A DNA stretch of 64,000 nucleotides from Thermoanaerobaculia bacterium (GCA_036402955.1 DASWRX010000316.1:4996-68995); one strand, 5' to 3'. Positions 10,665 through 46,900 are shown, numbered from the stretch's first letter. Notes: generated by a model from the sequence alone, not told the origin. Numbers and translations: made by a program.

Positions 10665-10675
10665 CCGGGATCTCC

Positions 10676-17577: not shown

Positions 17578-17734
17578 GGGGCGGCGGCGCGCTAAAGGTA
17601 GGACGAGGAGCGTCAGGCCGAGCAGGATCTCGGAGGCGGCGATGCCGAACAGCGCCGCGAAGTGGGCCAGGTAGAGCCAGTAGCCGGCCCGCGCGGCGCG
17701 CGAATCGGATGCCTCGAAGAGCCCGGCGCGGTCT

Positions 17735-17986: not shown

Positions 17987-18009
17987 GACGCGGGAGGATA
18001 GCACAGGCC

Positions 18010-18534: not shown

Positions 18535-18639
18535 GCGCTCGGGATATAGCACTGGAGGAGCCCCCGGCTCAACCCGTCCGTCGATTAAGATACCCCGCAT
18601 GCGACCGCCCTCGCCCAGGGATCCGGACGCCCCCGCGCC

Positions 18640-31465: not shown

Positions 31466-31542
31466 TGGTAGGCGCTAGCGGACTCGAACCGCTGACCTCT
31501 ACCGTGTGAAGGTAGCGCTCTAACCAGCTGAGCTAAGCGCCT
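31466..31542 (-). tRNA. tRNA-Val (anticodon CAC), CCA encoded
   Basis: Hand-folded cloverleaf. Acceptor AGGCGCT/AGCGCCT, D arm GCTC..GAGC, anticodon stem CTACC/GGTAG with loop TTCACAC, T arm AGCGG-TTCGAGT-CCGCT, then ACCA. Confidence 0.9.
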
Positions 31543-31634: not shown

Positions 31635-31711
31635 TGGTAGGCCCAAGCGGACTTGAACCGCTGACCTCTACGATGTCAACGTAGCGCTCTAACCAACTGA
31701 GCTATGGGCCT
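31635..31711 (-). tRNA. tRNA-Val (anticodon GAC), CCA encoded
   Basis: Hand-folded cloverleaf. Acceptor AGGCCCA/TGGGCCT, anticodon stem CTACG/CGTAG with loop TTGACAT, T arm AGCGG-TTCAAGT-CCGCT, then ACCA. Confidence 0.9.
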
Positions 31712-31785: not shown

Positions 31786-32124
31786 CGGAGGCCGGCGCCT
31801 CTGGGAACGGCCGCCTCTGGAGGCGGACCCTCCGCCTCGCCGGACGAGCCACCCGCCTCCCGAGGCGGGCCCTCCGCCTCCTGAGGCGGACCTCCCGCAT
31901 CTCGAGGCGGGCCTCCCGCCTCCTGAGGCGAACGCTCGGCCTCCTGAGGCGGGCCTGCCACCCCGCGAGGCGGGCCTGCCGCCTCCTGAGGCGGCCCTCC
32001 GCCCCGGAAGGCGGGCCTGTCGCCTCACGGGGCGGGCCTCCCGTCCCGGAAGGCGGGCCTGTCGCCTCACGGGGCGGGCCTCCCGTCCCGGAAGGTGGAG
32101 CCGCCGCCTCGCGGGGCGGGCCAC
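31786..32124. repeat. tandem array (~16 copies) of a self-complementary 21-nt unit, consensus about GAGGCGGGCCTCCCGCCTCCT
   Basis: Read directly from the sequence. It includes a perfect 42-nt tandem duplication (32004-32045 = 32046-32087). It fills the gap between the rlmI-like stop and tRNA-Val(GAC). Confidence 0.85.
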
Positions 32125-32128
32125 CGGC

Positions 32129-33322
32129 TCAGAGCACCGGCCCGCGCACCCGCGCCAGCCAGCCCTTCAGATACTCCCCCTGCGGATGGGTGATCGCCAC
32201 CGGGTGGTCCGGCGCGGCGGCGAGGGGCTCGAGGAGGTCGACCCGCACCCCCGCCTCGACGGCGGCGGCGAAGAAGATCTGGCGGAAGAGCTTGGCGTCC
32301 ACCGCGCCGCTGCAACTGAAGGTCATCAGGAACCCGCCCGGCTCGATCCGCGCCAGGGCCAGCCGGTTGAGGTCCTTGTAGGCGCGCGCGGCGGCGGCGA
32401 GGTCCGGCCGCTTGCGCACCAGGGGCGGCGGATCGCAGATCACCAGGCCGTACCGCTCCTCGCGCCGGCGGAGGTCCTCGAAGACGTTCGCCTTCACCCA
32501 TTCGATGCGCTCGGCGGGGAAACCGTTGAGGGTGACATGCCCGCGGCCGAGCTCGATCAGGCGGCTCGAGGATTCGATGCAGACCACCCGCCCGGCCCCG
32601 CCCCGCAGGGCGTAGAGCGCGAAGGCACCGGTGTGGGAGAACAGGTCCAGCACCGTGCGGCCGGCGGCGAACCGCTCGGCCCGCCGGCGGTTCTCGCGCT
32701 GGTCGCAGTAGAAGCCGGTCTTCTGGCCGCCGACGATCTCGGCCATGAAGAGTAGCCCCGACTCGGCGAACCGCGCCTCCGCGGGGGGATCGCCGGCGAG
32801 GATCTCGTCCGCCTCGCCCACCTCGTTCGCAACGACGGGGAGCCCCTCGGCCCGCCGCGCCGGCACGTCGTTCGACTGCACGATGGCGGCCCCCGGCAGG
32901 GCCGCGGCGAGAGCGGCATAGGCCTCGCCGCGCACGGCCTCCAGCCCCGCCGCCGTGACCTGGCTCACCAGGACATCGCCGAAGCGATCGACCGTCCAGC
33001 CGGGCACGCCGTCCCCCTCGGCGTTGAGCAACCGGTAGCCGGTGGTCTCCGGCGGCAGGACGGCCTCGCGCAGGGCGACCGCCTCGGCGATGCGGTCGCC
33101 GAAGAAGCGGCGGTCGGCCGCCAGCACGCCGGCGCCGAGCATGCGCACGCGGATCTGCGAGCGGGGGCTGTGGAAGCCGAGGCCGAGGAGGGTGCCGCGG
33201 GCGTCGAAGACCCGGGCGAGGGGAGCGCCGGCCGGGCCGCCGAGCCGGTCGACGGCGCCCGAAAAGACCCAGGGGTGGCCCTCCCGGACCGCCTTGTCGC
33301 GGCCCGGCTTGAGGTAGATCAG
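32129..33322 (-). CDS. RlmI-like SAM-dependent rRNA (cytosine-C5) methyltransferase with N-terminal PUA region; probable CTG start
   Basis: SAM motif VLDLFSHTGAFAL. The in-frame upstream sequence LIYLKPGRDKAVREGHPWVFSGAVD is the conserved RlmI N-terminus but has no ATG/GTG/TTG. Start set at CTG 33322 (alternative CTG at 33355 after GGAAGGAAG). Confidence 0.68.
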   Translation of the reverse strand: MIYLKPGRDKAVREGHPWVFSGAVDRLGGPAGAPLARVFDARGTLLGLGFHSPRSQIRVRMLGAGVLAADRRFFGDRIAEAVALREAVLPPETTGYRLLNAEGDGVPGWTVDRFGDVLVSQVTAAGLEAVRGEAYAALAAALPGAAIVQSNDVPARRAEGLPVVANEVGEADEILAGDPPAEARFAESGLLFMAEIVGGQKTGFYCDQRENRRRAERFAAGRTVLDLFSHTGAFALYALRGGAGRVVCIESSSRLIELGRGHVTLNGFPAERIEWVKANVFEDLRRREERYGLVICDPPPLVRKRPDLAAAARAYKDLNRLALARIEPGGFLMTFSCSGAVDAKLFRQIFFAAAVEAGVRVDLLEPLAAAPDHPVAITHPQGEYLKGWLARVRGPVL

Positions 33323-33390
33323 TGCTTCTCGGCTCGGCTCGGAGGGGCGATCCAGAAAGCAGCTTCCTTCCAGCAGAGGCGCGGCAGGGC

Positions 33391-35553
33391 TCAGCCCCTC
33401 GCGCGCGCCCCGGGGACGACGAAGCGCAGCGCGCTCGCCGCTCCGGAGACCGAGACGCGGAGCGTGTACTCGCCCGGCTTGAGGTCGGCCGGCAGACGGA
33501 AGGTGGCGACGGCGCGGTCCGCTCCCCCATCGGCGCCGGCGCGCCGGTCGGCGATCTCCAGACCGCCGGCCGGGGTCTCGCGCCCGTCGGCGGCGATCAC
33601 GGTGGCCTCCCCTTTCCAGGGAGCGGCGCCGAGGTTGTAGCCGGCGACGACCAGCCGCACCTCGCGGCCGGGCGGCAGCTCCGGCCGGGCGGCCGGGACG
33701 AACGGCTGGTTGCGGAGGAGGAAGGGGTAGGCGGGCGCCGGCCCCTCCCCCCGCTGCTGCTCGCGCACCATCAGCCAGCGGTTCGGGGGCTCGGGGACGA
33801 ACGGCGGCAGCAGCACCGGCTCGGCGGGGCCGAAGGCCGGCACGTGGAGCGCGGCCACCTTGAGGCCGGAGACGCCGCTGGCGGCGTTGCGCACCAGCAC
33901 CCGCAGCGAGTAGTCGCCGGGCTGGAGGTCGAGGTGGCCGAAGAACTTGAGGCCCCCCTGCCGCAGCAGGGCGCCGGCCTTGGTGAGGTCGAGGCCGACG
34001 GTCTGGGTGAAGAAGTCGTGCACCGCGCCGCCCTCGTCGAGGGCGTAGGCATAGATCTCCACCGGCAGCGAGGCGGGCTGGCGGCCGGCGAGCAGGGTCG
34101 GGCCGCCGACCTCGATCACCACCGGCACGTAGGCCTTCTCGCCCGACGCCCGGAACGGCGCCGCCAGCACCGAGGCGGCGATGGCGTCGCTCTCCTCGCC
34201 GCTCATCACCTGGTTGGCGGCGGCGAGGAGCTTCTCGATCGGGTCCTGCTCGGCGTAGGGCTTCGGCGGGTAGTAGCCCGGCCGGTGGACCAGCCGCGCG
34301 CCGTGGACGGGCTTCTCGAGGTCCACCCGCAGCCGGTGGAAGTCCCCCTCGGCGCCCGAACGCTCGGGCTGGATGGCCAGCACGTAGGTGACGCTGGTGC
34401 GCTTGAGCATCTGACCCATCGCCGCGCCGAGGTCGTTGTAGCTCTCGTAGAGCTCGCCGCCGGTGCCGCGGGCCATCAGCAGCAGGCTCTCGCGGCCGCC
34501 CAGCCGCGGCGCTCCCTGGTCGGCGCCGGCGCGCAGGCCGCCGATATCGACCGCCTGGAGGGTGCAGTCGGCGCGGCGGAACTCCTCGAGCATCCGCTCG
34601 ACGGCGTTGCTCACCTCGGTCAGGCCGTAGCGCTCCTCGGGGCTGGTGCGCCAGCTCTCGCCGTTGAGGGACTGCTCGTGGATCGTCTGCTCCTTCTCCG
34701 CGTCGACCGTCCCCTGCAGCAGCGAGACATCGAACCCCTCGGAGAGGAAGACCAGGTACTTGCGCCCCTCGACCACCGACATCTGCCGCGCCAGGTCGGC
34801 GAGCGACTTGGAGAAGGTCACGACGCGGGTCTTCAGGGCCGTGCGGTCGGCCAGCTCCACCTGCCGGGTGATCGCTTCGATCCGCGTCAGATCCCCGGAA
34901 TCGGTCGCCTCCGAGAGCGGATCGCGGGTCACCCGCGGCGCCGCGCCGCTGGCGACGTTGTCCACCCCCAGCACCTCCTGTAGCACCAGCCGCAACGGGT
35001 CGGCCGAGCTCGCCGTGAGGTCGAACAGGCCGAGACCGCCGAGGGCGCTCTGGAGCTGCCGCCGGTCGGAGGTGAAACCGAGCACGAGCTGCGGGCCACG
35101 CGAGGCGCTGTAGGTGGCCACGGCCACCAGGTCGGTGGGATGGAGATCGGCGAGCAGGCCGGCCGCCGCCCGCCGCGCCCGCACAATCGCCTTGGGCTCG
35201 GAGAAGGCGAGGTCGAACAGCATCAGGAAGTGGCGTCGCGCCGCCGACGGCACCGGGGAGGCCCGCCCCGCCCCTGTCGCCGCCAGGTCGAGCACCTCGA
35301 AGCCGGTGACCGGCAGCCGGCGGTGCCCCTCCCAGACCGCGAAGTCGCCGGCCTGGAGGCCGCGCACGGGCTCGCCGTCGCGCACCACCTGCACCGGCAC
35401 GTCGACGGACAGCACCTGGGCGGAGCCCGTGAAGGAGGAGGGCGCGGGGTGGGCCTGGGGCGCGGACGGGGTCTGCCCCCGCCCGGCGACCGCCGTCCCC
35501 AGGCTCAGCAGCGCGACGGCGGCGCCGCGCCGGATGCCGCGTCTCAGCCGCAT
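33391..35553 (-). CDS. secreted VWA-domain protein, acidobacterial VWFA-related type with long C-terminal beta-rich extension (paralog 1)
   Basis: Signal peptide; N-terminal VDVPVQVVRDGEPVRGLQAGDF module; VWA core (FLMLFDLAFSEP...LVAVATYS...YLVFLSEGFD); ~350-aa C-terminal extension. Alignable by eye over its full length to the next three genes. Confidence 0.8.
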   Translation of the reverse strand: MRLRRGIRRGAAVALLSLGTAVAGRGQTPSAPQAHPAPSSFTGSAQVLSVDVPVQVVRDGEPVRGLQAGDFAVWEGHRRLPVTGFEVLDLAATGAGRASPVPSAARRHFLMLFDLAFSEPKAIVRARRAAAGLLADLHPTDLVAVATYSASRGPQLVLGFTSDRRQLQSALGGLGLFDLTASSADPLRLVLQEVLGVDNVASGAAPRVTRDPLSEATDSGDLTRIEAITRQVELADRTALKTRVVTFSKSLADLARQMSVVEGRKYLVFLSEGFDVSLLQGTVDAEKEQTIHEQSLNGESWRTSPEERYGLTEVSNAVERMLEEFRRADCTLQAVDIGGLRAGADQGAPRLGGRESLLLMARGTGGELYESYNDLGAAMGQMLKRTSVTYVLAIQPERSGAEGDFHRLRVDLEKPVHGARLVHRPGYYPPKPYAEQDPIEKLLAAANQVMSGEESDAIAASVLAAPFRASGEKAYVPVVIEVGGPTLLAGRQPASLPVEIYAYALDEGGAVHDFFTQTVGLDLTKAGALLRQGGLKFFGHLDLQPGDYSLRVLVRNAASGVSGLKVAALHVPAFGPAEPVLLPPFVPEPPNRWLMVREQQRGEGPAPAYPFLLRNQPFVPAARPELPPGREVRLVVAGYNLGAAPWKGEATVIAADGRETPAGGLEIADRRAGADGGADRAVATFRLPADLKPGEYTLRVSVSGAASALRFVVPGARARG

Positions 35554-35557
35554 GACG

Positions 35558-37786
35558 TCAGCGGCCTCCGCGCGCTCCCGCCGCCCCCGCCACCGCGAAC
35601 CGCGCCGTGCTGGTCTCCGACTTGCCGGAGCCGTCGGTCAGGGTGACGCGTAGCGTGTAGTCGCCCGGCGGCAGGCTGGGCGGCCGGAAGTTGGCCACCA
35701 TCCGCGTCGGGTTGCCCCCCTTGGCCGCCTCGCGGTCCACCACCTGGAGAGCGCCGCCCGGCAGCTCCCGGCCGTCGGCCCCCAGGACCTTGACCTCCGC
35801 CTTCCACTCCCCCGCGCCCAGGTTGTAGCCCTGGAGCACCAGGCGGGCGTCCTGGCCCGCGCTGAGGGCCGGCCGCGAGGTCGGCACGTAGGGCTGGTCC
35901 TTGAGCATGAAGAGGTAGGGCAGGTCCGGCTGGCCCGCCTTCTTCGCCTGCCGCAGGTTCACCCAGCGGCCAGGAGCCGGATCGACGAAGATGCCCGGCA
36001 TCAGCGCCGGCGCCCCCTGGCCCAGCGACGGCACCATGAGCTCGGTGATCCGCAGGCTGGAATTCCCCGTCGTGCCGTTGCGCACCAGAGTGCGGATCGA
36101 GTACGCGCCCGGCGGCAGCTCGAGGTTGCCGAAGAACTTCAGTCCCCCCTGGCGCAGCGCCGTCTCGGCCTTGGTCAGGTCGAGCCCCACCGTCTGGGTC
36201 ATGAAGTCCTGCACGCTGCCGTTCTGGTCCAGCGCGTAGACGTAGATCTCCACCGGCAGTTGCGGCACCTGCTTGCCGGCCAGCAGCGTCGGACCGTCCA
36301 CCTCGATCACCACCGGCACGTTCGCCCGGTCCTTGCCGGCGAACGGCGCCGCGAGCACCGCGGTGCCGATGGTGCCGCCGTCCTGGCCCATCACGTCGCT
36401 GCTGGCCTCCAGCAGCCGCTGGAAGGGCGATTGGTCCTTGTAGGGGCGCGGTGAGTAGTAGCCCTGCCGGTAGACCACCCGCGTGCCGCGCGGGGCGTTC
36501 TTCAGCTCCACCCGCAGGTTGTGGTAGGAGCCGTCCTCCTTGAGGCCTTCGGGCTGGAACGCCAGCACGTAGGTGACACTGGTGCGGCGCATCATCTGCC
36601 CCATCGCGGCCGAGAGGTCGTTGTAGTTCTCGAACAGCTCGCCGCCCGTGCTCTTCGCCATGTTGAACAGCGCCTCGCGGCCGTTGCCCCGGTGGGCGGC
36701 CAGATCGGCACCGGCGCGCAGGCCGCCGATGTCCACCGCCTCGATCATGCAGTCGGCCCGGCGGAACGACTCGAGCATCTTCTCGACCGCGTTCTGCGAG
36801 CGGGTGTCGCCGAACTTGTCGTCCGAGCCGGACGCGCCGGTGGGGGCCTGGATCCGGCTCTCGTCGCCGATGTCCTGCCGGGCCTCCTGGTCCTCCGGCG
36901 AGCCGGCGCCGAGCGACGCGGCGGAGGAGGTCGCCTTGCCCGAGACCAGCGAGCTGTCGTACCCCTCGGAGAGGTAGACCACGTACTTGCGCCCCTCGAC
37001 TTCGCCCATCAGCCGGGCGAGATCCCCAAAGCGCTGGGTGAGCTTGCGCACCTCCTGCTGCTGGATGTTGCGGTCGGCGCGCTCGGACTGGGTGGCGAAC
37101 GTGGTCAGCGTGTCGATCAGGGCGTCGTCCTTGGCCCCCTGGAGCTCGTCCCCCTGGCGCCGCGCCGACGACTGGGAGGGGGTGGAGGGCCGGGTGTCGA
37201 TCTGTCGCTGGGACTGGGTGAGCACCAGGCGCAGGGGATCGGGAGCGCGGTCGATCAGCTTCGGCAGCCCCAGGGTGTCCAGCGCGGCGGCGATCTGCCG
37301 GCGGTCCGGCGTGAAGCCGAGCACGAGCTGGGTGCCCTGCAGCGAGCTGTAGGTGCCCACCGCCACCAGGTCGGTCGGATGCAGCCCGTCGACCACCCGC
37401 TGGGCCGCCTGGCGGGCCTTGGCGATCGACTTCGGCTCGGAGAAGGAGAGGTCGAACAGCATCAGGAAGTGGCGCCGGGCCGAGACCGGAACCTGCGCCG
37501 CGGCGGCCGCCGGCGTGCCCGCGGGAACGGCGGCGGCGAGGTCGAGCATCTCGAAGCCGGTGATGTTCATCTTCTTGCGGCCTTCGTAGACCTCGAAGTC
37601 GCTCGCCTTCAGCCCGCGGACCGGCTCGCCGTCCTTGACCACCTGGACGGGAACCTCGACCGCGACGACGCTCGTCGACTCCGCGAAGGTCTGCTTCTGC
37701 TGGGCGGCTCCCGGCCAGGGCGCGAGCCCCAGCGCCGCGGCGGCGAGCAGAATGGCGATGGATTGCGCTCGGCGACTGTGTTTCAT
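35558..37786 (-). CDS. secreted VWA-domain protein (paralog 2)
   Basis: Same architecture as paralog 1. Start trimmed to ATG 37786 (MKHSRRAQSIAILLAAAALG signal peptide, SD AAGGA). Confidence 0.8.
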   Translation of the reverse strand: MKHSRRAQSIAILLAAAALGLAPWPGAAQQKQTFAESTSVVAVEVPVQVVKDGEPVRGLKASDFEVYEGRKKMNITGFEMLDLAAAVPAGTPAAAAAQVPVSARRHFLMLFDLSFSEPKSIAKARQAAQRVVDGLHPTDLVAVGTYSSLQGTQLVLGFTPDRRQIAAALDTLGLPKLIDRAPDPLRLVLTQSQRQIDTRPSTPSQSSARRQGDELQGAKDDALIDTLTTFATQSERADRNIQQQEVRKLTQRFGDLARLMGEVEGRKYVVYLSEGYDSSLVSGKATSSAASLGAGSPEDQEARQDIGDESRIQAPTGASGSDDKFGDTRSQNAVEKMLESFRRADCMIEAVDIGGLRAGADLAAHRGNGREALFNMAKSTGGELFENYNDLSAAMGQMMRRTSVTYVLAFQPEGLKEDGSYHNLRVELKNAPRGTRVVYRQGYYSPRPYKDQSPFQRLLEASSDVMGQDGGTIGTAVLAAPFAGKDRANVPVVIEVDGPTLLAGKQVPQLPVEIYVYALDQNGSVQDFMTQTVGLDLTKAETALRQGGLKFFGNLELPPGAYSIRTLVRNGTTGNSSLRITELMVPSLGQGAPALMPGIFVDPAPGRWVNLRQAKKAGQPDLPYLFMLKDQPYVPTSRPALSAGQDARLVLQGYNLGAGEWKAEVKVLGADGRELPGGALQVVDREAAKGGNPTRMVANFRPPSLPPGDYTLRVTLTDGSGKSETSTARFAVAGAAGARGGR

Positions 37787-37869
37787 GCCTCGTCCTTTCA
37801 GCCCTCGGTACGTTCCGGTTCCTCCAGCCTCTCCGGCAAGGGATACGAATAGATGCGATAAAAATAGCA

Positions 37870-40047
37870 TCAATGGCCTCCCGCCACCACGAACGGCGCG
37901 CTGCTGGCGGCGACCGCGCCGCCCGCGCCGGTGACCGTGACGCGCAGGAGGTAGCCCCCCGGCGGCAGGTGGGGCGGCCGGAAGGCCGCCACCAGGCGGT
38001 CCGGCCCGCCGGCGCTCGCCGCCTCCCGCTGGATGATCCGCACCGCGCCGTTGCCGACCTCCTTGCCGTCGGGGGTGAGCACCTGCGCCGACGCCCGGAG
38101 GTCGCCGGCGCCGAGGTCGTAGCCCACCAGCGCCATCGGCGCCTCGCGCCCCTCGGCGAGCGCCGGCCGCGACGCCGGCACGTAGGGCTGCTGGCGGGCC
38201 ATGAACGGGTAGTCCACCTGCGGCCCGCGGGCAGCCTCGCGCACGATCATCCAGCGGCCGGCCGCCGGGTCGGGGAACAGCGCGGGCAGCAGCGCCGGCC
38301 CCTTGCCGAAGGCCGGCACCGTCACCGTGGCGACGCGCAGGCTGAAGCCGCCGGTGACACCATTGCGCACCAGCGTGCGCACCGAGTAGTCGCCCGGCGG
38401 CAGGTCGAGGTGGCCGAAGAACTTGAGCCCCCCCTGCCGCAGCGCCGGCGCGGCCTTGGCGAGGTCGAGCCCGAGCGACTGGTAGAGGAAGTCCTGGATG
38501 GCGCCGCCGACGTCGAGGGCGTAGGCGTAGACCTCGACCGGCAGGGTCCCTCCGGCGTCCCTGCCGGCGAGCAGCGCCGGACCGTCCGCCTCGATCAGCA
38601 CCGGCACGTAGGCTCGCTCACCGGCGGCGCGGAAAGGGGCGGCGAGCACGGCGCCGGGGATCCCTCCCGCCTCCTCGCCGCCCATCAGCCGCGAGGAGGC
38701 CTCGAACAACTTCTCCAGCGGGTTGAGCTGCGCGTAAGCCTTGGGCGAGTAGTAGCCGGCGCGGTAGGCGACCCGGGTGCCCCGCGGCGCGTTCTTCAGC
38801 TCCACCTTGAGCTTATGGTATACGCCGGGCTTGCCCGGCTCCGGCTGGACCGCCAAGACGTAGGTCAGGCTGGTCCGCGCCAGCAGGCCGCTCATCGCCC
38901 CGGCGAGATCGTTGGAATTCTCGAACAGCTCGCCGCCGGTCCCCCGCGCCATGGCGAGGAGGGTGTCCTTGCCACCGGTCCGCGCCCCCGCCGCCTGGTC
39001 GCCGGCGGCCCGCAGGCCCCCGACGTCCACCGCCTCGATGACGCAGTCGGCGCGGCGGAACTCCTCGAGCATGCGCTCGAGCCCGTTGAGCGACTCGGAG
39101 CTGCCGAAATTCTCCTGCGAGTCGGAGAGGTAGGCCTGCTGGTTGGCCCGGTCCTGGTCGAGCGCCGACTGGGTCTGGACGTCGGCGTCGGTGCCGATGC
39201 CGAGCGAGCCGGGAGCCGCGGCGGTCCGGCCGCCGCCGGTGAGGAACGAGCTGTCGAACCCTTCGGAAAAGTAGATCACCTGCTTGCGTCCCGGCAGGCT
39301 CCCCAGCATCTGGGCGAGCTGGGCATAGGCGCGGGTCAGCGCCGTGACGGCCGCCTTCTGGACGCTGCGGCTGGACTCCTTGCCCAGGTTCGCGAGCTGT
39401 CCGCCCTGCGCGTCCAGCAGCTCGTTGGTGCGCGCCAGGTCGGCCTCCTGCGAGCGTTCGGCGAGCTGGGGCTGCCCGCCCCCCGCGCCGGCCCGCGCCA
39501 TCACCAGCCGCAGGGGGTCGGAGGCGCGGTCGTCGCGCACCGCTCCGAGCGAGTCGAGGGCCGCGTCCACCTGCCGCCGGTCGGAGGTGAAGCCGAGCAC
39601 GATCTGCGGGCCGCGCGCCGCGCTGTAGGTCGCCACCCCCACCAGGTCCCCCGGCCGGATCCCCTTGAGCACCAGGCCGCGGGCCGCCTCGCGCGCTGCG
39701 GCCACCGAGCGGGCGCCGGAGAAGGCGAGGTCGAAGAGCAGCAGGAACTGCCGGCGGCCGGAGAGGGGCAGGGCCGCCCGGCCGGCGCCCGCTGGGACGG
39801 CGAGGTCGACGGCGTGGAAGCCGGCGACCGGCAGCTTCCGGCGCCCCTCGGAGACCTCGAAGTCGTTCGCGGTCAGGCCGCGGACCGGCTGGCCGTCCCG
39901 GACTACCTGGACGGGGATCTCGACCTCCACGACGTCCGTCGAGCCGGCGAACGTGCCGGACGTCTGGGCGGCGGCGGGCGGTAAGGCGGTGAAAGACAGC
40001 GCAGCCAGGGTGGCGCAGAGCCACGCGAGCGGCTTCGGGTGCGGCAT
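37870..40047 (-). CDS. secreted VWA-domain protein (paralog 3)
   Basis: Same architecture. Signal peptide MPHPKPLAWLCATLAALSFTALPPAAAQ. SD GGAGGGG. Confidence 0.8.
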   Translation of the reverse strand: MPHPKPLAWLCATLAALSFTALPPAAAQTSGTFAGSTDVVEVEIPVQVVRDGQPVRGLTANDFEVSEGRRKLPVAGFHAVDLAVPAGAGRAALPLSGRRQFLLLFDLAFSGARSVAAAREAARGLVLKGIRPGDLVGVATYSAARGPQIVLGFTSDRRQVDAALDSLGAVRDDRASDPLRLVMARAGAGGGQPQLAERSQEADLARTNELLDAQGGQLANLGKESSRSVQKAAVTALTRAYAQLAQMLGSLPGRKQVIYFSEGFDSSFLTGGGRTAAAPGSLGIGTDADVQTQSALDQDRANQQAYLSDSQENFGSSESLNGLERMLEEFRRADCVIEAVDVGGLRAAGDQAAGARTGGKDTLLAMARGTGGELFENSNDLAGAMSGLLARTSLTYVLAVQPEPGKPGVYHKLKVELKNAPRGTRVAYRAGYYSPKAYAQLNPLEKLFEASSRLMGGEEAGGIPGAVLAAPFRAAGERAYVPVLIEADGPALLAGRDAGGTLPVEVYAYALDVGGAIQDFLYQSLGLDLAKAAPALRQGGLKFFGHLDLPPGDYSVRTLVRNGVTGGFSLRVATVTVPAFGKGPALLPALFPDPAAGRWMIVREAARGPQVDYPFMARQQPYVPASRPALAEGREAPMALVGYDLGAGDLRASAQVLTPDGKEVGNGAVRIIQREAASAGGPDRLVAAFRPPHLPPGGYLLRVTVTGAGGAVAASSAPFVVAGGH

Positions 40048-40159
40048 GGGTCCCCTCCATCCGGGACGGCTCGCCGGCCCGGGAACGCCCTCGCTTCGGG
40101 GTCAGCTCAAACGGCAGATCAGAACCACAAGTCCCTCGACGATTTCCCTCAATAAGATA

Positions 40160-42373
40160 TCAGCGCTCGACCTGGAAGGGTAGGGAGTTCGTCTGCTGAT
40201 GTCCGGTCACCGGATCGGTGACCGCCACTTTGAGGACGTAATCCCCGGCATTGAGTCCCGCCGGATCGAAGGTGGCGACCAGCTTGTCCAGCCCCTGGAT
40301 GCCGGTCGCCGTCCGCTCGACGTTCTCCAGCTTGCCGGCCGGGGAGAGCTTGCCGTCGGCCGCAACCACCTTGCCATCGACGTGGACCGCCCCCTTGCCC
40401 AAGTTGTAGGCCACCAGGCAGAGGCGGGCGGGCTTGGGGCCGTGCAGCACCGGCCGGGCGGCGGGGACGTATGGCTCGCCCGACACGGTGAACGGATAGA
40501 TGACCGACCCCTGCAGCGTGTTGGCCCCCTGCTCGCGCACCATCAGCCACTTCTGGTGCTCCTCCATGAAGAACGGCGGGAGCAGGACCGGCTGGGCCTG
40601 GTCGTAGGTGGGCACGGTCACCCGCATCGTCTGGACGCCGGTGCGCCCGGTCTCGGCGTTGCGCACCAGCACGCGCACGTTGTAGGCGCCGGGCTGCAGG
40701 TCGAAGTGGCCGTAATACTTGATGCCGCCCTCCAGCAGGGCCTGGCGACTCTTGCCCTTGTCGAGGTCGAGCGCCACCCGCTGGGTGAAGAAATCGCGCA
40801 TCTGCCCCTGGAGGTCGCTGACGTAGGTGTAGAACTCGACGTCTATCTTCTTGCCCGTGTGGCCGTTGAGCAGGCTCTTGCCGCCGGCCTCGATGATCAC
40901 CGGCACGTAGGCCCGCTGCGGCGTGGCGCGGAACGCGGCGGAGAGGACGTCGAGATCGATCTCCCGCCTCGGCGTGGCGCTGGCGATGCCGTCCGAGGCG
41001 AGCAGGTTCTTCTCCAGCGCGTCGAGCTGCTTGAAGGGCCGCGGCGCGTAGTAGCCGGTGCGGTGGGCCAGGTGGGCCCCCGCCGGCAGCTTCAGCGCCT
41101 TGACCCGCAGCCGGTGGTAGCCGCCGTCGAGCTTGAGGTCCGACCGCTCGAAGGTCAGCAGGTAGGTGACGCTGGTGCGCTCGAGCACCCGGTCGAGCGG
41201 CTCGCGCAGGTTGTTGGCGTCCTTGAACAGCTCGCCGCCGGTCTCGTTGGCGATGTAGAACAGGGCCCCCTGGCCGTCCGGGCGGGCTCGCTCGTCGGCG
41301 CCGGCCCGCAGGCCGCCGATGTCGACCGCCTGGATGACGCAGTCGGCGCGGCGGAACTCGTCGAGCATCCGCTTGAGGTCTCCCTGCAGGCCGGTGTTGC
41401 CGAAGCGCTGGTCGTTGTCGACCTTCCAGATCTCGCCGAACTCGGCGCTGAGGTTATCGTCCACCGCGTCTTGATCGGTGGTGTTGCGGCCGAGCAGCAG
41501 CCGGCTGTCGAACCCCTCGGAAAAGAAGAGGACCTGCTTGCGCCCCTGCACGGAGTTGAGCGCGCGCGCCACCTGTGCGAGCGAGCGCGAGTAGCTGGAG
41601 ATACGGCCCACCTCGTACGAGCGGTCGCTGCGCGCGGCGGCGAAGGCGATCGTCTGCAGGTAGTCGTAGAGCACCTGCTCCTTCTGCTGCCGGATGTCGA
41701 CATTGCGCTGGCTGCCGCTCCCCGCCCCCTCGAGTTCGATGGCCGAGCCGAGCTGCTCGGTCGCCGGCGGCTCGATCATGAAACGGAGCGGATCGTTCTT
41801 GGCCTCGGCGTCGAGGGCGCGGTGATAGCCGAGGGTGTCGATCGCCCGCGCGAGCTGCGCCCGGTCGGGGGTGAAAGTGATGATCAGCTTGGGGCCGTTC
41901 TCCAGCGAGTAGGTGGCGACCGCCGCGAGGTCCTCCGGGTGGAGCGAGTGGAGGACGAAGTCGCGCGCCGCCAGGCGCGCCTTGAGGATCGCCGTCGGCG
42001 AGGAGAACGACAGGTCGAACAGGAACAGGAAGCGGCGGCGGGCCGCCGAGGGGATGTCCACCGGCGGGCGACTGGAGGCCGGGGCGGGGGTCGCCTCGCC
42101 GGCCTGCGCCTCGAGCGTCTTGAGATCCACCACCTCGAAGGAGGTGATCTTCTGCCGCTCGTTGCCGTCGTAGACCTCGAAGTCGTCGGCGGTGAGCCCG
42201 CGTACCGGCTCGCCGTCACGGCCGACGACGTTGACCGGGACCTCCACCGCGACCACCTGCGAGGTGCCCTCGAACGTCTGGGCCCGGGCCGGCGGCGGCG
42301 CCACCGCCGCGAAAGCGAGGAGCGGAAGGAGAAGGCTCGTCGGGAGAGGGCGGAAAGGTGACAACGCGCGCAT
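40160..42373 (-). CDS. secreted VWA-domain protein (paralog 4)
   Basis: Same architecture. Trimmed from the 1177-aa ORF to ATG 42373 (MRALSPFRPLPTSLLLPLLAFAAVA, SD AAGGAG). Confidence 0.8.
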   Translation of the reverse strand: MRALSPFRPLPTSLLLPLLAFAAVAPPPARAQTFEGTSQVVAVEVPVNVVGRDGEPVRGLTADDFEVYDGNERQKITSFEVVDLKTLEAQAGEATPAPASSRPPVDIPSAARRRFLFLFDLSFSSPTAILKARLAARDFVLHSLHPEDLAAVATYSLENGPKLIITFTPDRAQLARAIDTLGYHRALDAEAKNDPLRFMIEPPATEQLGSAIELEGAGSGSQRNVDIRQQKEQVLYDYLQTIAFAAARSDRSYEVGRISSYSRSLAQVARALNSVQGRKQVLFFSEGFDSRLLLGRNTTDQDAVDDNLSAEFGEIWKVDNDQRFGNTGLQGDLKRMLDEFRRADCVIQAVDIGGLRAGADERARPDGQGALFYIANETGGELFKDANNLREPLDRVLERTSVTYLLTFERSDLKLDGGYHRLRVKALKLPAGAHLAHRTGYYAPRPFKQLDALEKNLLASDGIASATPRREIDLDVLSAAFRATPQRAYVPVIIEAGGKSLLNGHTGKKIDVEFYTYVSDLQGQMRDFFTQRVALDLDKGKSRQALLEGGIKYYGHFDLQPGAYNVRVLVRNAETGRTGVQTMRVTVPTYDQAQPVLLPPFFMEEHQKWLMVREQGANTLQGSVIYPFTVSGEPYVPAARPVLHGPKPARLCLVAYNLGKGAVHVDGKVVAADGKLSPAGKLENVERTATGIQGLDKLVATFDPAGLNAGDYVLKVAVTDPVTGHQQTNSLPFQVER

Positions 42374-42420
42374 CGCGAACTCCTTGATCCGGCCGCTTCG
42401 AACGGCCCTGTGCTTCTGTC

Positions 42421-43530
42421 TCACCGGCCCAGCATGCGGGCGTAGTGGAGGGCGTCCTGGTTGGTGGCGTCCAGCTTCAGGGCCCGCGACAGGTAGTGCC
42501 GCGCCTTCTCCATGTCGCCCAGCGCGAGATAGACCTTGACGAAACCGAGGTGGACCTCGGGCAGCTCGCTGTCGAGGCGGAGGGCGCGCACCATGTAGTC
42601 GAGGGCCTTGTCGCCGTCTCCCCGAGCGAGCGCCACCTCTCCCTCGTAGACGAAGAAGAACGGGTTGGTGGTGTTCTCCGCCTCCACCTTCGCCAGCAAC
42701 CGGTTCGCCTCGTCGGCGCGGCCGAGCTCCTGGAGGGCGCGCGCCATGTTGACCAGCAGGGTCGAGTTGTCCGGGCTGATCTGGAGCCCCCGCTGGTAGG
42801 TCTCGATCGCCTTCTGCGGCTCGCCGCCGCGCGCCTGGACCACCCCGAGATTGTTGATCGCCTTGTCGAACCGTGGCGCGATCCGGGTGGCGGTGGTCAG
42901 CAGCTCGCGGGCGCGGGCGAGGTCGCCGCCGAGCAGCGCCTCGGCGCCGAGGTTGTTGTAGTAGTGCGCCGCGGCCGTCAGGTCGTCGATCGGGTTGAAC
43001 TCCTTGTAGGTCTTCTGCCGGTAGGGGATGAAGTCGAAGGGGCGCAGCACGCCGTCGATGTACATGCCGGCGACGATGTGCCCCTGGCTGACCACCATCC
43101 CCTCGCGGTGGTTCCACTTCTGGAGGTCGGTCACCTCCACATAGTAGGGACTGAGGCCCAGCTCCCGCGCCACCCCCACGAACAGGTTGACGAAGGAGAG
43201 GCAGTTGCCGGAGCGGGTGCGGTAGGTGGCGACCGCGTCCTTGGTGGGCGTCAGCGAGTACTGGAGCTGCAGGCCGTCGAAGATGAAGTCGTTGACCTGG
43301 TTGACCCGGCGCAGCTCGCTCGAGAGCTTCGGCAGCTTCTGCAGCGAGCCGCGGATGGTGTCGTCGAGCTCGAAGGGGACCTCGACCCGGGCCGCCTCCT
43401 GGGCACCGATCTCGCGGGCGTACTGCTGGCGCAGGTAGCCCACCGAATCGAACGGTTTGTACTCGGTGCAGCCCGCCGCGAGCAGGGCCGCGGCGAGGAG
43501 GGTCGCGCGGGCGGTACCTCGGTTCATCAC
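42421..43530 (-). CDS. lipoprotein with transglutaminase-like cysteine-protease core and C-terminal TPR repeats
   Basis: Lipobox LLAAGC. Cys-His-Asp arrangement (SGNCLSFVNLF ... GHIVAGMY ... PFDF) as in the transglutaminase core. At least 4 TPR-like repeats follow. Confidence 0.72.
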   Translation of the reverse strand: MMNRGTARATLLAAALLAAGCTEYKPFDSVGYLRQQYAREIGAQEAARVEVPFELDDTIRGSLQKLPKLSSELRRVNQVNDFIFDGLQLQYSLTPTKDAVATYRTRSGNCLSFVNLFVGVARELGLSPYYVEVTDLQKWNHREGMVVSQGHIVAGMYIDGVLRPFDFIPYRQKTYKEFNPIDDLTAAAHYYNNLGAEALLGGDLARARELLTTATRIAPRFDKAINNLGVVQARGGEPQKAIETYQRGLQISPDNSTLLVNMARALQELGRADEANRLLAKVEAENTTNPFFFVYEGEVALARGDGDKALDYMVRALRLDSELPEVHLGFVKVYLALGDMEKARHYLSRALKLDATNQDALHYARMLGR

Positions 43531-43540
43531 GAGTCAATAT

Positions 43541-43556
43541 AGCAGGGAATGTGCCA
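43541..43556 (-). promoter_or_regulatory. candidate sigma-54 (-24/-12) promoter facing the lipoprotein/VWA operon
   Basis: Minus strand reads TGGCAC-ATTCC-CTGCT, with GG and GC at canonical spacing. No SD lies between it and the GTGATG start. Confidence 0.42.
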
Positions 43557-43764: not shown

Positions 43765-43780
43765 TGGCACTCCACTTGCT
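43765..43780 (+). promoter_or_regulatory. candidate sigma-54 (-24/-12) promoter facing the TonB-dependent receptor operon
   Basis: TGGCAC-TCCAC-TTGCT is an exact match to TGGCAC-N5-TTGCW. It lies about 180 nt upstream of the receptor ATG. Confidence 0.6.
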
Positions 43781-43881
43781 TGACCCAGGGTCGATCCGTT
43801 GGCTAGAGTTCTCAGGCCAACTCATACCGGGTCTCGGAACGGAAAGGGGGTGTTGCTGGACACTGCATCACAGTCACTGCG

Positions 43882-43959: not shown

Positions 43960-46900
43960 ATGAAGAACATCCATTCCTGGGGACGGATCGTGGCCGTTGC
44001 CGCGTTGCTGTTGCTGGCCGTCGGCGGAGCCGCCTTCGCCCAGTTGCAGACCGGCAGCCTCTACGGCACCGTCACCGACGACAAGGGAGCGGCGCTCCCC
44101 GGCGTCACCGTGACCTTAGGGGGCCAGGCGGCTCCGCAGGTGCAGGTCACGAACGCCCAGGGGCAGTTCCGTTTCCTGAGCCTCAGCCCGGGCAACTACA
44201 GCCTGAAGGCTGAGCTCGAGGGATTCTCGACCATCGATTACCCGAACATCGTGATCAACATCGGCCGCAACACCCAGATCGAGGTGAAGCTGTCGGCGGC
44301 CGTCGAGGACGTCATCACCGTCACGGCGGAGAGCCCGCTGCTGGACGAGCGCCGCGTTTCGACCGGCGCCACGGTCAGCCAGACCGAGCTCGAGAAGATC
44401 CCGACCTCGCGTGATCCCTGGGCGATCCTGCAGACGACCCCGGGCGTGCTCACGGACCGTATCAACGTGGGCGGCAACGAGAGCGGCCAGCAGGCGAACT
44501 ACGTGGGCCCCGGCGCGGGCGGCGATCAGGCCGTCTGGGCCGTGGACGGCGTGGTGATCACCGACATGGCGGCCCTCGGCTCGTCTCCGGCCTACTACGA
44601 CTTCGACGCGTTCGAAGAGATGCAGGTCACGACGGGCGGCTCGGACACCACGACGGCCACCCCCGGCGTCGTGCTCAACATGGTGACGAAGCGCGGCACC
44701 AACGAGTGGCGCGGCTCCGGCCGTTACTACGACACCGACAAGGCCTGGCAGGCGAAGACCAACATCGACAACAGCGAGCTCGATCACGGTGGCTCGTACA
44801 ATGGCAACCATCCCCAGACGGTGATCAAGCAGGGCAACCGCATCGTCAAGGTCCAGGACTACGGCGCCGAGCTCGGTGGCCCGATCGTCAAGGACCGCCT
44901 GTGGATCTGGGGCTCCTACGGCCGCCAGAAGGTCGACCTGCTGACCATCGCCAACGTCGGCGACCACACCGACCTCAAGACCATCAACGGCAAGCTGAAC
45001 GCGCAGATCGCCGCCAGCAACTCGGCGACGGCCTTCGTGCTCAACAGCGACAAGGTCAAGATCGGCCGCAACGCCGGCCCGACCCGGCCCCAGGAGACCA
45101 CCTGGAACCAGGGCCACTTCGGCTCCAAGCCGACCGCCGCGAAGATCGAGGACACCCACATCTTCAGCTCCAGCCTGTACGTGACGGGGCTCGCCTCGCT
45201 CGTCAACGGCGGCTTTGAGCTCGTCCCCCAGGGCGGTCTCGCGGTCACTCCGTTCCTCGATTCCGGGGGCGTGTGGCACAACACGTTCCTCATCAACACC
45301 ACCACGCGGCCGCAGAAGCAGTACAAGGTCGACGCCTCCGACTTCTTCAACACGGGGAGCCTCTCCCACGAGCTGAAGTTCGGCGCCGGCTACCGTCAGG
45401 CCGACGTGACCTCGTTCACCCGTTGGGGTGGCGCGGGCATCGAGCTCGACAAGGCGTTCTGGTTCACCGGCTTCAACCTCCTCGAGCTGGCGCGCGACGC
45501 CGGCCCGAAGGTGCAGAACACCTACAAGAACGGCTACCTGCAGGACACCATGACCGTGGGCAACCTCACGGCCAACGTGGGCGTACGGTATGACGTGCAG
45601 GGCGGCACCAACCTAGCTCGCACGGTTGCGGCCAGCTCCCTGCTGCCGACCGTCCTGCCCTCGGTCTCCGTGCCGCAGTCGGACATCGGCTTCGAGTGGA
45701 AGAGCCTGACGCCGCGTATCGGCCTCACCTACGCTCTCGGCGCCGAGCGCAAGACCCTGCTGCGGGCGAGCTACTCGCGCTTCGCGGACCAGTTGGGCTC
45801 GGGCACCTCGTCCTGGCTCAACCCGCTGGGCACGATCAGCTACGCCTACTTCGACACCACCAACCCCGGCAACGGGAACATCACCCCCGGCCAGATCGGG
45901 AACTTCTACGGGTACAGCGGCAACGTCAACCCGAACAACGGCCTCCTGCTGCAGTCCAACGCGCTCAGCTCCCACCTGTCGGCCCCCAAGACAGACGAGG
46001 TGCTGCTCGGCGTCGAGCACGCTCTGCTGCCGGAGTTCGTGGTGGGTCTCGACCTGACCTACCGCCACTACTTCGACATCCTGGATGCCCAGCGTCTGGT
46101 GTTCGACGGCAACCCGTACTCGACGGCGAACCTGAACTCCACCGGCCGCATCAACCAGGCGTCGGACTACGTGCCCTGCACCGATCCGTCGGTCCAGGCC
46201 AACCTGCAGTCCCCCTGCCCGGTCGGCACGCTGCCGGGCGGCCAGGCCTACAACGCTCCCTACTACGTCCTGCGCAATGGTGTCGCCACCCGCAACGGTG
46301 CGTACCTCTACAACGGCGGTAAGGAGCAGCAGTACAAGGGCGCTTCGATCGTCTTCAACAAGCGTCTCGCCAACCGCTGGATGCTGCGTGGCAACGTGAC
46401 CTACTCCGACTGGACGTGGAGCAAGGTTCCGGCCTCCTCGCGGATCGATCCCACCCCGCTCCTCGGCGGCGGCAATCGCGAAGGCGACGCCGTTCTCCAG
46501 GGCTCGGGCACGGCTTCGGGCGCCAAGGCCGGCGTCTACATCAGCGGCAAGTGGGCCTACAGCGTCAACGGCCTGTATCAGATCGCTCCCGACCGTCCGT
46601 GGGGCTTCAACTTCGCCATCAACGCCAACGGTCGCCAGGGCTATCCGGTCCCGTACTACAAGCGCGTCATTCTGCCGGCCAACATGCAGAGCGTCTACGA
46701 GTACGTGCAGGCCACCAACCGTCCCGACTCCTTCCGTCTGGACAACATCAACATCCTCGACGCCCGCCTGGAGAAGGAATTCAACTTCAGCGACGTCGGC
46801 CTGACCCTTGGCGTGGACTGCTTCAACGTCTTCAACAAGGGCTTCGTCCAGCAGCGCCAGCACCGCCTCGGCCTGACGACCGGCTCCGCCGCGTCGAACT

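Follow-up and report, generated by a model that had tools for sequence, protein, structure and literature searches.

A conserved Thermoanaerobaculia locus predicted to pair a transglutaminase-like/TPR lipoprotein with a variable array of secreted VWA proteins

The window analysed here, a stretch of 64,000 nucleotides from a Thermoanaerobaculia MAG, carries on its minus strand, at 33391-43530, a gene for a lipoprotein with a transglutaminase-like core and TPRs (TG/TPR), followed by four paralogous genes for VWA proteins (V1 to V4). These genes and the features around them are as follows.

32129-33343, minus strand: RlmI-like PUA + SAM methyltransferase, syntenic, on the 3' side of the V array
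33391-35553, minus strand: V4, 720 aa, class B, motif DLAFS, TIGR03436 125.9 bits
35558-37786, minus strand: V3, 742 aa, class B, motif DLSFS, TIGR03436 171.9 bits
37870-40047, minus strand: V2, 725 aa, class B, DxSxS motif DLAFS, TIGR03436 144.4 bits
40160-42373, minus strand: V1, 737 aa, class A, TIGR03436 176.6 bits
40163-41041, minus strand: C-terminal extension of V1, residues 445-737, two beta-sandwiches (~474-590 and ~600-737)
42421-43530, minus strand: TG/TPR lipoprotein, 368-369 aa, GTG start
43536-43544, minus strand: TGCTATATT, resembling an extended -10 element, 5 nt before the GTG start codon of TG/TPR
43780-43809, plus strand: sigma-70-like promoter TTGACC-18-TAGAGT for the divergent transporter gene
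43960-46962, plus strand: Oar-architecture TonB-dependent-transporter-like outer-membrane protein, 1000 aa, divergent from TG/TPR
47095-48096, plus strand: CarboxypepD_reg + TPR protein, 333 aa, conserved downstream of the transporter gene
48110-52407, plus strand: two alkaline-phosphatase-superfamily ('Sulfatase') + TPR lipoproteins, 700 and 732 aa

The ORFs and their coordinates agree with the original prediction of five genes in the same direction, separated by gaps of 47, 112, 83 and 4 nt, the start of V4 lying 4 nt past the V3 stop. The minus-strand frames are read as coding because their GC3 is 0.84-0.96, and the long plus-strand ORFs were dismissed as shadow ORFs, the genome having 70% GC. 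A database twin of TG/TPR (P0271) starts at an ATG at 43527, which gives 368 aa. Each of V1-V4 is preceded by a ribosome-binding site of the GGAGG/AAGGAG type, no Shine-Dalgarno sequence was seen ahead of TG/TPR, and no convincing internal terminator was found between the array genes. To judge from this layout, TG/TPR and V1-V4 form a predicted operon that is kept across the whole class Thermoanaerobaculia. The element TGCTATATT is a candidate promoter for it, from which the mRNA would be nearly leaderless; of 65 related intergenic regions, 28 have a TGnTAnwwT element no farther than 45 nt from the approximate start of TG/TPR, and it is only in front of TG/TPR that a promoter-like element is conserved within the array. 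The -35 context of the transporter promoter, CTTGCTTGACC, is exact in 50/65 of the same regions. No riboswitch or recognisable regulator box was found in the shared intergenic region.

The TG/TPR protein bears a lipobox (LLAAGC, read by eye, with its Cys at C21 in GTG-start numbering), a transglutaminase-like core at about residues 70-180 containing C110, H151 and D166, and then about nine TPR-type helical hairpins (182-365). It matches Pfam Transglut_core (PF01841) over residues 70-159 at 32.4 bits, above the cutoff of 23, as well as TPR families; among the 25 matches listed of 32 (E<=0.1), all except PF01841 are of TPR/ARM type. There is also a weak, sub-threshold TPR_9 match and one weak generic match to the BatC TPR model (E 0.005). 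The orthologues are 54-88% identical, and across 70 of them C110 and H151 are conserved in 100%, D166 in at least 95% and C21 in 97%. In the AF2 model (pLDDT 85.4) the Cys sits at the N-terminal end of a helix, with the His and the Asp on neighbouring strands, a secondary-structure context that fits the transglutaminase-like superfamily; the Foldseek matches are TPR proteins only. As had been claimed from the DNA alone, TG/TPR is thus predicted to be a lipoprotein with an intact Cys-His-Asp site of protease or transglutaminase type, and it is plausible that this site cleaves or cross-links the V proteins.

All four V proteins match NCBIfam TIGR03436 at 125.9-176.6 bits (cutoff 81.25; model positions 4-323/324, residues ~37-445), which bears out their earlier likening to the acidobacterial VWFA-related family. 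Of the generic VWA models, PF13519 reaches 14.8-16.6 bits, below the Pfam cutoff of 27, and no PF00092 match was reported in the Pfam scan. Identity of the paralogs to V1 is 42-45%, and their consensus contains the motifs quoted in the original prediction, in keeping with the single architecture proposed for them. V1 consists of a signal peptide, an N-terminal beta module, a VWA core with a helical insert, post-VWA strands and two C-terminal beta-sandwiches. Its AF2 model (pLDDT 75, pTM 0.73) has four N-terminal strands, an alpha/beta core in which strands and helices alternate over residues 114-410 in a Rossmann-like fold, four post-VWA strands and the two sandwiches. The best Foldseek matches are RbmA (a biofilm scaffold), integrin alphaXbeta2, the Ig-like domains of PrgB, and ANTXR2, all generic Ig/FN3 tandems at low TM-scores (0.10-0.36) and 8-13% identity. 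The DxSxS motif reads DLSFS in V1 and V3 and DLAFS in V2 and V4, and T154, T168 (candidate MIDAS threonines) and D289 are invariant across the four paralogs. As judged from the signal peptide and from the lipobox read by eye, the V proteins and TG/TPR are probably extracytoplasmic. No membrane anchor besides the signal peptide was read from the V sequences, and the V C-termini (…PFQVER, …FVVAGGH and others) carry no LPXTG-type sorting signal; this, together with the diderm nature of the acidobacterial host, led us to reject sortase-assembled pilus tip adhesins as an identity for these proteins. We found no literature on the long V family.

The extension beyond TIGR03436 is present in all four V proteins and is beta-rich as predicted, AlphaFold modelling it as two Ig/FN3-like beta-sandwiches, but it measures ~290 aa rather than the ~350 aa first proposed. 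It belongs to no characterised family that could be recognised: there was no Pfam match above threshold, no match among PDB sequences, and no family identity by Foldseek, the best match being RbmA, a tandem FnIII protein (E 4e-8, low TM). The two domains have a homologous terminal hairpin in common (hhalign 93%), and the last sandwich weakly matches, below threshold, carbohydrate-binding-type beta-sandwich families, Wzt_C and MalQ_N among them. Elongated VWA proteins of this kind had been considered unusual; however, about 1,186 clusters (50% identity) carry the extension, nearly all full-length relatives have 700-750 aa and an identical layout, and the long architecture is the norm in Thermoanaerobaculia. 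Some long relatives have TPRs fused to the V architecture.

The locus was compared across 80 species-level genomes, the source and all named relatives being MAGs of Thermoanaerobaculia/Acidobacteriota. In 61/63 loci TG/TPR precedes V1 on the same strand, the two genes being adjacent or split only by DUF3179 and V1 being 51-79% identical; V1 stands without TG/TPR upstream in two. This linkage spans two orders, Ca. Multivoradales included, and the pairing stays where rearrangement is seen elsewhere in related loci; the module appears to be vertically conserved across the class. The V proteins fall into two classes: V1 (class A), a single slow-evolving orthogroup 51-82% identical across the 80 genomes, and the downstream paralogs (class B). 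The genes in first position group together in a single 81-member clade, where DxSxS is canonical for the most part and 59 sequences combine DLSFS with intact T154 and D289 columns; in class B the first Ser of the motif is often Ala or Thr. In closer relatives the V2 orthogroup occupies position 2; the V3 orthogroup occurs at positions 2-3 and that of V4 at positions 3-4. More distant species have lineage-specific class-B groups in their place. Related loci hold 1 to 5 V copies, four being the commonest count (16/39 bounded loci; 17/47 loci with enough flank), and the downstream paralogs vary in number from 0 to 6. V1 is alone in two loci (L047 and L072), where an HMM search disclosed no hidden divergent copies; solitary V genes occur, and one MAG has six class-B genes, without TG/TPR, on another contig than TG/TPR-V1. 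Of the gene order first proposed, the TG/TPR-V1 linkage is retained and the fixed number of four VWA genes is not.

The divergent transporter gene is present in 57/59 loci, and distance correlation does not single out TG/TPR-V1 (partial r 0.60, vs 0.69 for TG/TPR-transporter). Transporters of the Oar subclass have an N-terminal CarboxypepD_reg extension, a Plug domain and a barrel of 22 strands. The transporter-like protein matches CarboxypepD_reg (PF13620) at 60.7 bits and, at the borderline, Plug (24.0 vs a 23.9 cutoff); the protein of the window matched no barrel family in Pfam and no NCBIfam model of any kind, and its orthologue in L084 matches the barrel families PF00593 (weakly) and PF25183. 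The CarboxypepD_reg-TPR and 'Sulfatase'-TPR genes are kept in most related loci, and both 'sulfatases' have Thr at the Cys/Ser position of C/S-x-P-x-R. The neighbourhood is otherwise one of core housekeeping genes, with thrS-infC-pheST adjoining; the RlmI-like methyltransferase, which probably lies outside the system, remains beside a class-B array in L085.

Several known systems have parts in common with this locus. TIGR03436 is an uncharacterised paralogous family; the V proteins resemble it over the full 324-position model, in their occurrence in Acidobacteriota and in their expanded paralogs, and form within it a distinct subfamily with a ~290-aa two-sandwich module outside all Pfam and NCBIfam models and with a conserved TG/TPR partner. 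Bat (BatA-E) and MoxR-DUF58-TgpA operons are envelope-associated and encode VWA and TPR proteins, TgpA having a transglutaminase-like domain; the array differs from them in that Pfam scans of the principal predicted ORFs of the window found no MoxR ATPase or DUF58 and in having no transmembrane anchors, all its parts being predicted to be Sec- or lipoprotein-exported. In LapG-LapA, a periplasmic transglutaminase-fold Cys-His-Asp protease processes a VWA-containing adhesin, an analogous pairing of extracytoplasmic enzyme and VWA-bearing protein. However, TG/TPR matches PF01841, and PF06035 (LapG/BTLCP) is not among the 25 matches listed of 32; the locus has no LapD, T1SS or RTX repeats, and the V proteins have ~730 aa, whereas LapA-type adhesins are giant. 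SirB1/YchA-type proteins (COG2912) have the same order of transglutaminase-like core and TPRs, but are cytoplasmic and match PF13369, unlike the predicted lipoprotein described here with PF01841 and an intact triad. At the fold level, a VWA head with candidate MIDAS-type residues and Ig/FN3-like domains recalls the integrin I-domain, ANTXR2 and RbmA, a design analogy rather than membership in view of the TM-scores, the identities and another domain order. To our knowledge, the Oar type is the sole transporter class implicated in protein export so far. Oar-architecture transporters are mostly importers and dominate in Bacteroidetes, yet in Myxococcus xanthus an Oar-type transporter is experimentally needed for protein secretion, PopC export requiring one with CarboxypepD_reg, Plug and barrel (PMC6434023). 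The same architecture appears to be encoded divergently at the V locus, where a role in export may be envisaged by analogy. In the same diderm, CglB is a VWA outer-membrane adhesin that acts in the Glt system with TPR lipoproteins and outer-membrane barrels (PMC9946355); in this comparison, made by architecture, the V proteins differ in not being lipoproteins and the locus in having no Glt motor genes.

We tentatively propose an extracytoplasmic adhesion or scaffold module in which TG/TPR docks and then processes or cross-links the VWA proteins, a reading to which we give a little less than an even chance. An outer-membrane-type lipoprotein, in which a Cys-His-Asp domain of papain/transglutaminase fold is joined to a TPR platform for protein binding, would share a transcript with TIGR03436-type VWA proteins exported by Sec, each of which may resemble a small integrin or adhesin, with a MIDAS-type VWA head, beta-strands on both sides and two Ig/FN3-like 'leg' domains. 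V1, with its mostly canonical DxSxS, would be the obligate partner; the platform would dock V1 and the class-B paralogs, and the catalytic site would cleave them or cross-link them by isopeptide bonds into a periplasmic or cell-surface layer that adheres or scaffolds in a metal-ion-dependent way. V2-V4 would be an expandable, diversifying set tuning ligand range or assembly, and not fixed stoichiometric subunits, and the divergent transporter may carry V proteins across the outer membrane. We count in favour of the module the TIGR03436 membership, the conserved motif residues of the V1 clade, the AF2 model of V1 with its best Foldseek matches, the conservation of triad and lipobox, the synteny, the short gaps, the TPR fusions and the M. 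xanthus precedents of Oar-dependent secretion and CglB; the low TM-scores, the TPR-only Foldseek matches of TG/TPR, the unspecific distance correlation, the two loci without TG/TPR, the solitary V genes and the importer norm count against it. The bolder and previously undescribed version, an ATPase-independent pathway in which the transporter exports VWA-Ig proteins that TG/TPR cuts or cross-links into an integrin-like metal-dependent surface or matrix scaffold, seems to us improbable.

Nutrient capture, although unlikely, deserves more weight than the other alternatives. In such a polysaccharide-utilisation-like locus, the Oar/SusC-architecture transporter would import, the alkaline-phosphatase-superfamily TPR lipoproteins would hydrolyse the substrate, the V proteins, at the surface or in the periplasm, would bind an anionic polymer in a metal-dependent manner, and TG/TPR would be either an auxiliary peptidase or a binding lipoprotein of the SusD kind. 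The divergent units are linked as tightly as TG/TPR-V1, most transporters of this architecture import, tandem Ig-like domains resemble surface glycan-binding proteins in outline, and Wzt_C and MalQ_N are sub-threshold matches of the last sandwich. However, the searches found no glycoside hydrolase, no regulator and no SusD family, the 'sulfatases' do not have their motif, the intergenic region has no regulatory box, the V proteins are not lipoproteins and the surroundings are housekeeping genes. It may also be argued that the locus holds no system, its V genes being redundant, independent secreted adhesins born of tandem duplication and TG/TPR an unrelated syntenic neighbour: the whole neighbourhood, RlmI-like methyltransferase and thrS included, is syntenic, and therefore adjacency alone could reflect low rearrangement; distance correlation gives no TG/TPR-V1-specific signal, and class-B arrays can stand apart. 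We hold this to have a small chance only, given that the same-strand pair persists while other parts rearrange, that the conserved promoter-like element is confined to TG/TPR, and that TPR-V fusions exist in relatives.

The four-fold array was originally taken to imply a fixed hetero-oligomeric extracellular assembly with V1-V4 as distinct subunits. The conserved order of the V2, V3 and V4 orthogroups in closer relatives, the prevalence of four copies and the 4-nt V3-V4 gap, consistent with translational coupling, would agree with it; a fixed four-subunit assembly is nevertheless quite improbable, because copy number varies from 1 to 5, a six-gene class-B array exists apart from TG/TPR and only V1 is constant, to which the V1-only loci and the lineage-specific class-B groups of distant species may be added. 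A MoxR-less relative of Bat (aerotolerance) or MoxR-DUF58-TgpA, serving as an envelope-stress or oxidative-tolerance complex, has overlapping parts (VWA, TPR, transglutaminase-like) and the weak BatC match to commend it. It is very improbable: as the original prediction had stated, MoxR and DUF58 are absent, in Pfam scans, from the principal predicted ORFs of the window, and they are likewise absent from the called genes of three related loci (L001, L002 and L084), the V proteins have no anchor, and BatA/B-type Pfam VWA models fall below threshold on them.

Soils and sediments are rich in Thermoanaerobaculia and other Acidobacteriota, of whose envelope systems very few have been characterised, and the locus is among the most conserved unannotated secreted-protein blocks of the class. 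A new domain model is warranted for the two-sandwich module, which Pfam misses in >1,000 protein clusters. It can be hypothesised that TIGR03436-type VWA proteins have a dedicated Cys-His-Asp lipoprotein partner, that the V proteins are split into a constant V1 and expandable paralogs, and that their locus may be tied to an Oar-type transporter.

The operon that joins the TG/TPR gene, encoding a lipoprotein with a transglutaminase-like core and TPR repeats, to the four secreted VWA paralogs V1 to V4 is real, class-wide and uncharacterised; it does not bear out the idea that the locus is an anomaly. The five genes lie where the original prediction had placed them, with intergenic gaps of 47, 112, 83 and 4 nt from TG/TPR to V4.

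Features of the operon and its surroundings
7788-15586, minus strand: pair of a BamA/TamA-like protein (POTRA + Omp85, 992 aa) and a TamB-like protein (1636 aa)
22670-22856, minus strand: full-length 6S RNA (84 bits), adjoining RNase Y/YmdB genes
31469-31542 and 31638-31711, minus strand: two tRNA genes upstream of thrS
31810-32122, intergenic: tandem array of ~15 copies of a 21-nt unit, lying between the stop of the methyltransferase and the two tRNA genes
32129-~33343, minus strand: RlmI-like PUA + SAM methyltransferase
33391-35553, minus strand: V4, 720 aa
35558-37786, minus strand: V3, 742 aa
37870-40047, minus strand: V2, 725 aa
40160-42373, minus strand: V1, 737 aa
42421-43530, minus strand: TG/TPR ORF; the identical database protein P0271 begins at ATG 43527 (368 aa)
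43536-43544, minus strand: TGCTATATT, extended -10-like element 5 nt upstream of the TG/TPR start
43780-43809, plus strand: promoter-like element of the transporter (promoter scan)
43960-46962, plus strand: Oar-architecture TonB-dependent-transporter-like gene (CarboxypepD_reg + Plug)
48110-50212 and 50209-52407, plus strand: two 'Sulfatase'-family + TPR lipoproteins, start and stop overlapping by 4 nt

The V starts adopted here are preceded by AAGGAG/GGAGG-type ribosome-binding sites, and the resulting lengths agree with those of the orthologues. A 1177-aa ORF for V1 and a TTG start for V3 were rejected as 5' extensions of the kind usual in a genome with 70% GC. Both GC3 (0.84-0.96) and the frame plot identify the minus-strand frames as coding; the long ORFs opposite them on the plus strand are shadow ORFs. 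A promoter and terminator scan gave no convincing terminators in the array interior; the 5 found do not exceed the 3.9 expected from shuffles, and internal termination is therefore not indicated. The position of TGCTATATT next to the TG/TPR start, and the recurrence of a similar element in 28 of 65 relatives, suggest that it is the operon promoter and that the message, which has no Shine-Dalgarno ahead of TG/TPR, may be leaderless or near-leaderless. The -35-like CTTGCTTGACC, exact in 50 of the 65 shared intergenic regions, belongs to the transporter promoter, and neither the shared intergenic region nor the ~150-nt leader of the transporter gene matched a riboswitch or other RNA family in Rfam.

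The class-wide character of the operon is substantiated by a scan of GTDB species representatives, which returned 430 relatives; the comparison covers the best 80 loci (51-79% identity to V1), all ORFs of which were classified by BLAST and HMM. The hosts belong to Thermoanaerobaculia, Ca. Multivoradales among them, or are MAGs that carry the label Holophagales or Acidobacteriota; the window V1 is itself identical to a protein of a Thermoanaerobaculia MAG. On one strand the conserved block comprises the Oar-architecture transporter, a CarboxypepD_reg/TPR protein (CPD-TPR) and one or more AP-superfamily/TPR lipoproteins, and on the divergent strand TG/TPR, V1, more V genes, the RlmI-like methyltransferase, (tRNAs) and thrS. 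The predicted order of TG/TPR followed by four VWA genes held in its TG/TPR-V1 linkage, TG/TPR lying on the same strand upstream of V1 in 61 of the 63 loci with enough flank, but the number of V genes varies from 1 to 5. The divergent transporter was found in 57 of 59 loci. In 33 of the 80 loci, the deepest-branching ones included, TG/TPR and V1 have a DUF3179 gene between them or close by (between the two genes in L047, 8451-9923; after the V genes in L084); it is absent from the window and has been lost from this lineage. The literature on DUF3179 consists of selenoprotein surveys, in which it is an occasional selenoprotein family, and one genome paper. Two distant loci (L083 8575-10180; L084 15700-17496) encode FG-GAP/UnbV_ASPIC proteins, with integrin-alpha-like repeats, close to V genes, a proximity that may be coincidence.

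Downstream of the array, the methyltransferase, the 21-nt hairpin repeat array, two tRNAs and thrS-infC-pheST form a core-genome neighbourhood. Ahead of the methyltransferase PUA domain there is no ATG, GTG or TTG, and translation from the first canonical codon (33148) would cut the domain short; a non-canonical start or a sequence error may be the cause. Each 21-nt unit holds a short GC-rich inverted repeat (CCGCCTC...GGGCGG), and the array resembles REP-like hairpin repeats. As listed, the BamA/TamA-like and TamB-like ORFs (10676-15586 and 7788-10766) overlap by ~90 nt; O-antigen-ligase-like and PagL-like genes lie near, in a region rich in envelope-biogenesis genes. The two 'Sulfatase' lipoproteins are not true sulfatases, because Thr occupies the formylglycine-motif position (C/S-x-P-x-R replaced by T-L-R-A/S-D, as IDTLRAD and IDTLRSD); they are a different type of alkaline-phosphatase-superfamily enzyme.

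The V proteins belong to the acidobacterial VWFA-related family TIGR03436 on every criterion tested: all four match the whole 324-position NCBIfam model over residues ~37-445 with 126-177 bits (cutoff 81.25), the generic Pfam VWA_2 remaining below threshold (15-17 bits vs 27). V2 to V4 are 42-45% identical to V1, and the motifs quoted in the original prediction are common to all four. Within TIGR03436 they are a long subfamily of their own, with a two-sandwich module that no model covers. Residues 445-737 of V1 gave no Pfam or NCBIfam match above threshold and only weak beta-sandwich matches (Wzt_C, Y_Y_Y, MalQ_N), and the V profile retrieved no sequence relative from the PDB (best E 0.24); the match to a well-characterised family that would have told against the original prediction did not appear in these searches. 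In the AF2 model of V1 (pLDDT 75.4, pTM 0.73), four strands (41-83) precede an alpha/beta VWA core at 114-400, whose helical insert (185-272) is poorly modelled; another four strands (402-442) and two beta-sandwich domains (~474-590, ~600-737) follow, and the arrangement of the strands is consistent with a VWA inserted into a small split beta-sandwich. Foldseek against the PDB ranked tandem Ig/FN3 proteins first, with Vibrio cholerae RbmA on top (E 4e-8), followed by integrin alphaXbeta2, PrgB Ig-like domains and ANTXR2, and antibodies were also among the matches; since these matches are generic and their TM-scores low (0.10-0.36), they were used as fold-level evidence only. The terminal hairpins of the two sandwiches are homologous (hhalign 93% over 31 columns), a sign that the domains may have arisen by internal duplication.

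The elongated form had been considered unusual, but it proves to be the norm of a sizeable unannotated subfamily, since the extension alone retrieved 1,186 clusters at E<=1e-3 (802 at E<=1e-10) from 1.84 billion representatives and the layout recurs. Most of the best 150 matches listed measure 700-750 aa and align at ~420-720, the same architecture; shorter ones among them look like fragments, and a few extension-bearing proteins of 1073-1085 aa have added C-terminal TPRs. The relatives are named just 'VWA domain-containing protein' or 'VWFA-related protein', and their named sources are all Thermoanaerobaculia or Acidobacteriota MAGs. A literature search returned no paper on TIGR03436, VWFA-related Acidobacteria proteins or Thermoanaerobaculia von Willebrand proteins.

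Two classes of paralog can be distinguished. The first-position genes (class A) form one clade of 81 sequences with a mean identity of 63%, against 43% to any other paralog and never >50%; 59 of the 81 combine DLSFS with an intact Thr (T154) and Asp (D289) in the scored columns, variants including DFSFS, DVSFS, DLTFS and DLSFA. Class B splits into V2, V3 and V4 orthogroups whose order is kept in closer relatives, lineage-specific groups taking their place in more distant species; its first Ser of DxSxS is often Ala or Thr, and the window V2 and V4 read DLAFS. The variable paralog set is partly MIDAS-degenerate, and the Oar-architecture transporter is constantly linked. Copies, V1 included, number 1-5 in the 47 loci whose downstream flank reaches 9.5 kb or more; in a set of 39 loci delimited by TG/TPR and the methyltransferase, 8, 10, 16 and 5 loci hold 2, 3, 4 and 5. 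L047 and L072 have V1 alone, and hidden divergent copies in such loci were rejected, an HMM search giving one new ORF with a marginal partial match (E 7e-8). In MAG GCA_040349255.1, L042 (TG/TPR-DUF3179-V1) and L085, where six tandem class-B genes (5663-19192) adjoin the RlmI-like methyltransferase, lie on different contigs; toxin-antitoxin genes (PIN/MazE, HepT/MNT) flank the L085 array. One distant V gene stands alone on an 11.4-kb contig. Some paralogs in long-read MAGs are split into two or three ORFs (L002/L003 12276-14542, also L010, L029 and L039), either by frameshift assembly errors or as pseudogenes, so that copy numbers are slightly undercounted. From the varying copy number, the V1-only loci and the separate class-B array, it follows that TG/TPR and V1 are the constant core and class B an expandable, detachable set.

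For TG/TPR, the predicted lipoprotein, Cys-His-Asp core and TPR repeats are corroborated by a lipobox (LLAAGC) whose Cys is kept in 97% of 70 orthologues, a Pfam Transglut_core (PF01841) match at residues 70-159 (32.4 bits, cutoff 23), many TPR families over residues ~180-365, and a putative triad of C110 (GNCLSF, 100%), H151 (SQGHIV, 100%) and D166 (at least 95%). In the AF2 model (pLDDT 85.4, pTM 0.80) the Cys sits at a helix N-terminus and adjacent strands carry the His and the Asp, the arrangement of a papain/transglutaminase fold. By sequence, TG/TPR belongs to the transglutaminase-like superfamily, with its putative triad intact. A PDB profile search returned generic TPR proteins only, and Foldseek matches were swamped by TPR proteins and hence uninformative on the catalytic core. 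Identity as a LapG/BTLCP or SirB1-type protein was rejected on the Pfam matches listed, as was a defence role on PADLOC, which gave no defence-system match for the V proteins and only generic TPR matches for TG/TPR.

An exported Cys-His-Asp/TPR lipoprotein gene is thus constantly paired, and apparently co-transcribed, with that of a MIDAS-type VWA protein bearing Ig-like legs. We propose that the TPR platform of TG/TPR would bind the V proteins, that its catalytic site would cut or cross-link them, and that they would assemble in the periplasm or at the surface into a metal-dependent layer for adhesion or scaffolding, with export possibly through the transporter; taken jointly, these steps are put forward tentatively, at somewhat less than an even chance. 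The transporter shares its CarboxypepD_reg and Plug architecture with the Oar subclass needed for secretion of the protease PopC in Myxococcus xanthus (PMC6434023). The design of the locus is closest to bacterial VWA adhesin systems such as CglB (PMC9946355) and LapG-LapA, and also resembles integrin-like VWA and Ig architectures.

That this is instead a PUL-like nutrient-capture locus appears unlikely, and we give still less weight to independent adhesins in coincidental synteny. Distance ('mirror-tree') correlations among TG/TPR, V1, transporter, CPD-TPR and methyltransferase all lie at r 0.86-0.94, and partial correlations do not single out TG/TPR-V1. The fixed hetero-oligomer that the original prediction had drawn from the four paralogs is weakened by the copy-number variation and seems marginally less probable again. 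A MoxR-less Bat-like system is very improbable; no MoxR or DUF58 turned up, as had been noted, when about 45 predicted ORFs spanning most of the 64 kb were scanned with Pfam, and in membership tests the locus fell outside the MoxR/Bat systems. With the proposed docking and processing of the V proteins by TG/TPR, this operon of the Thermoanaerobaculia now yields testable hypotheses.
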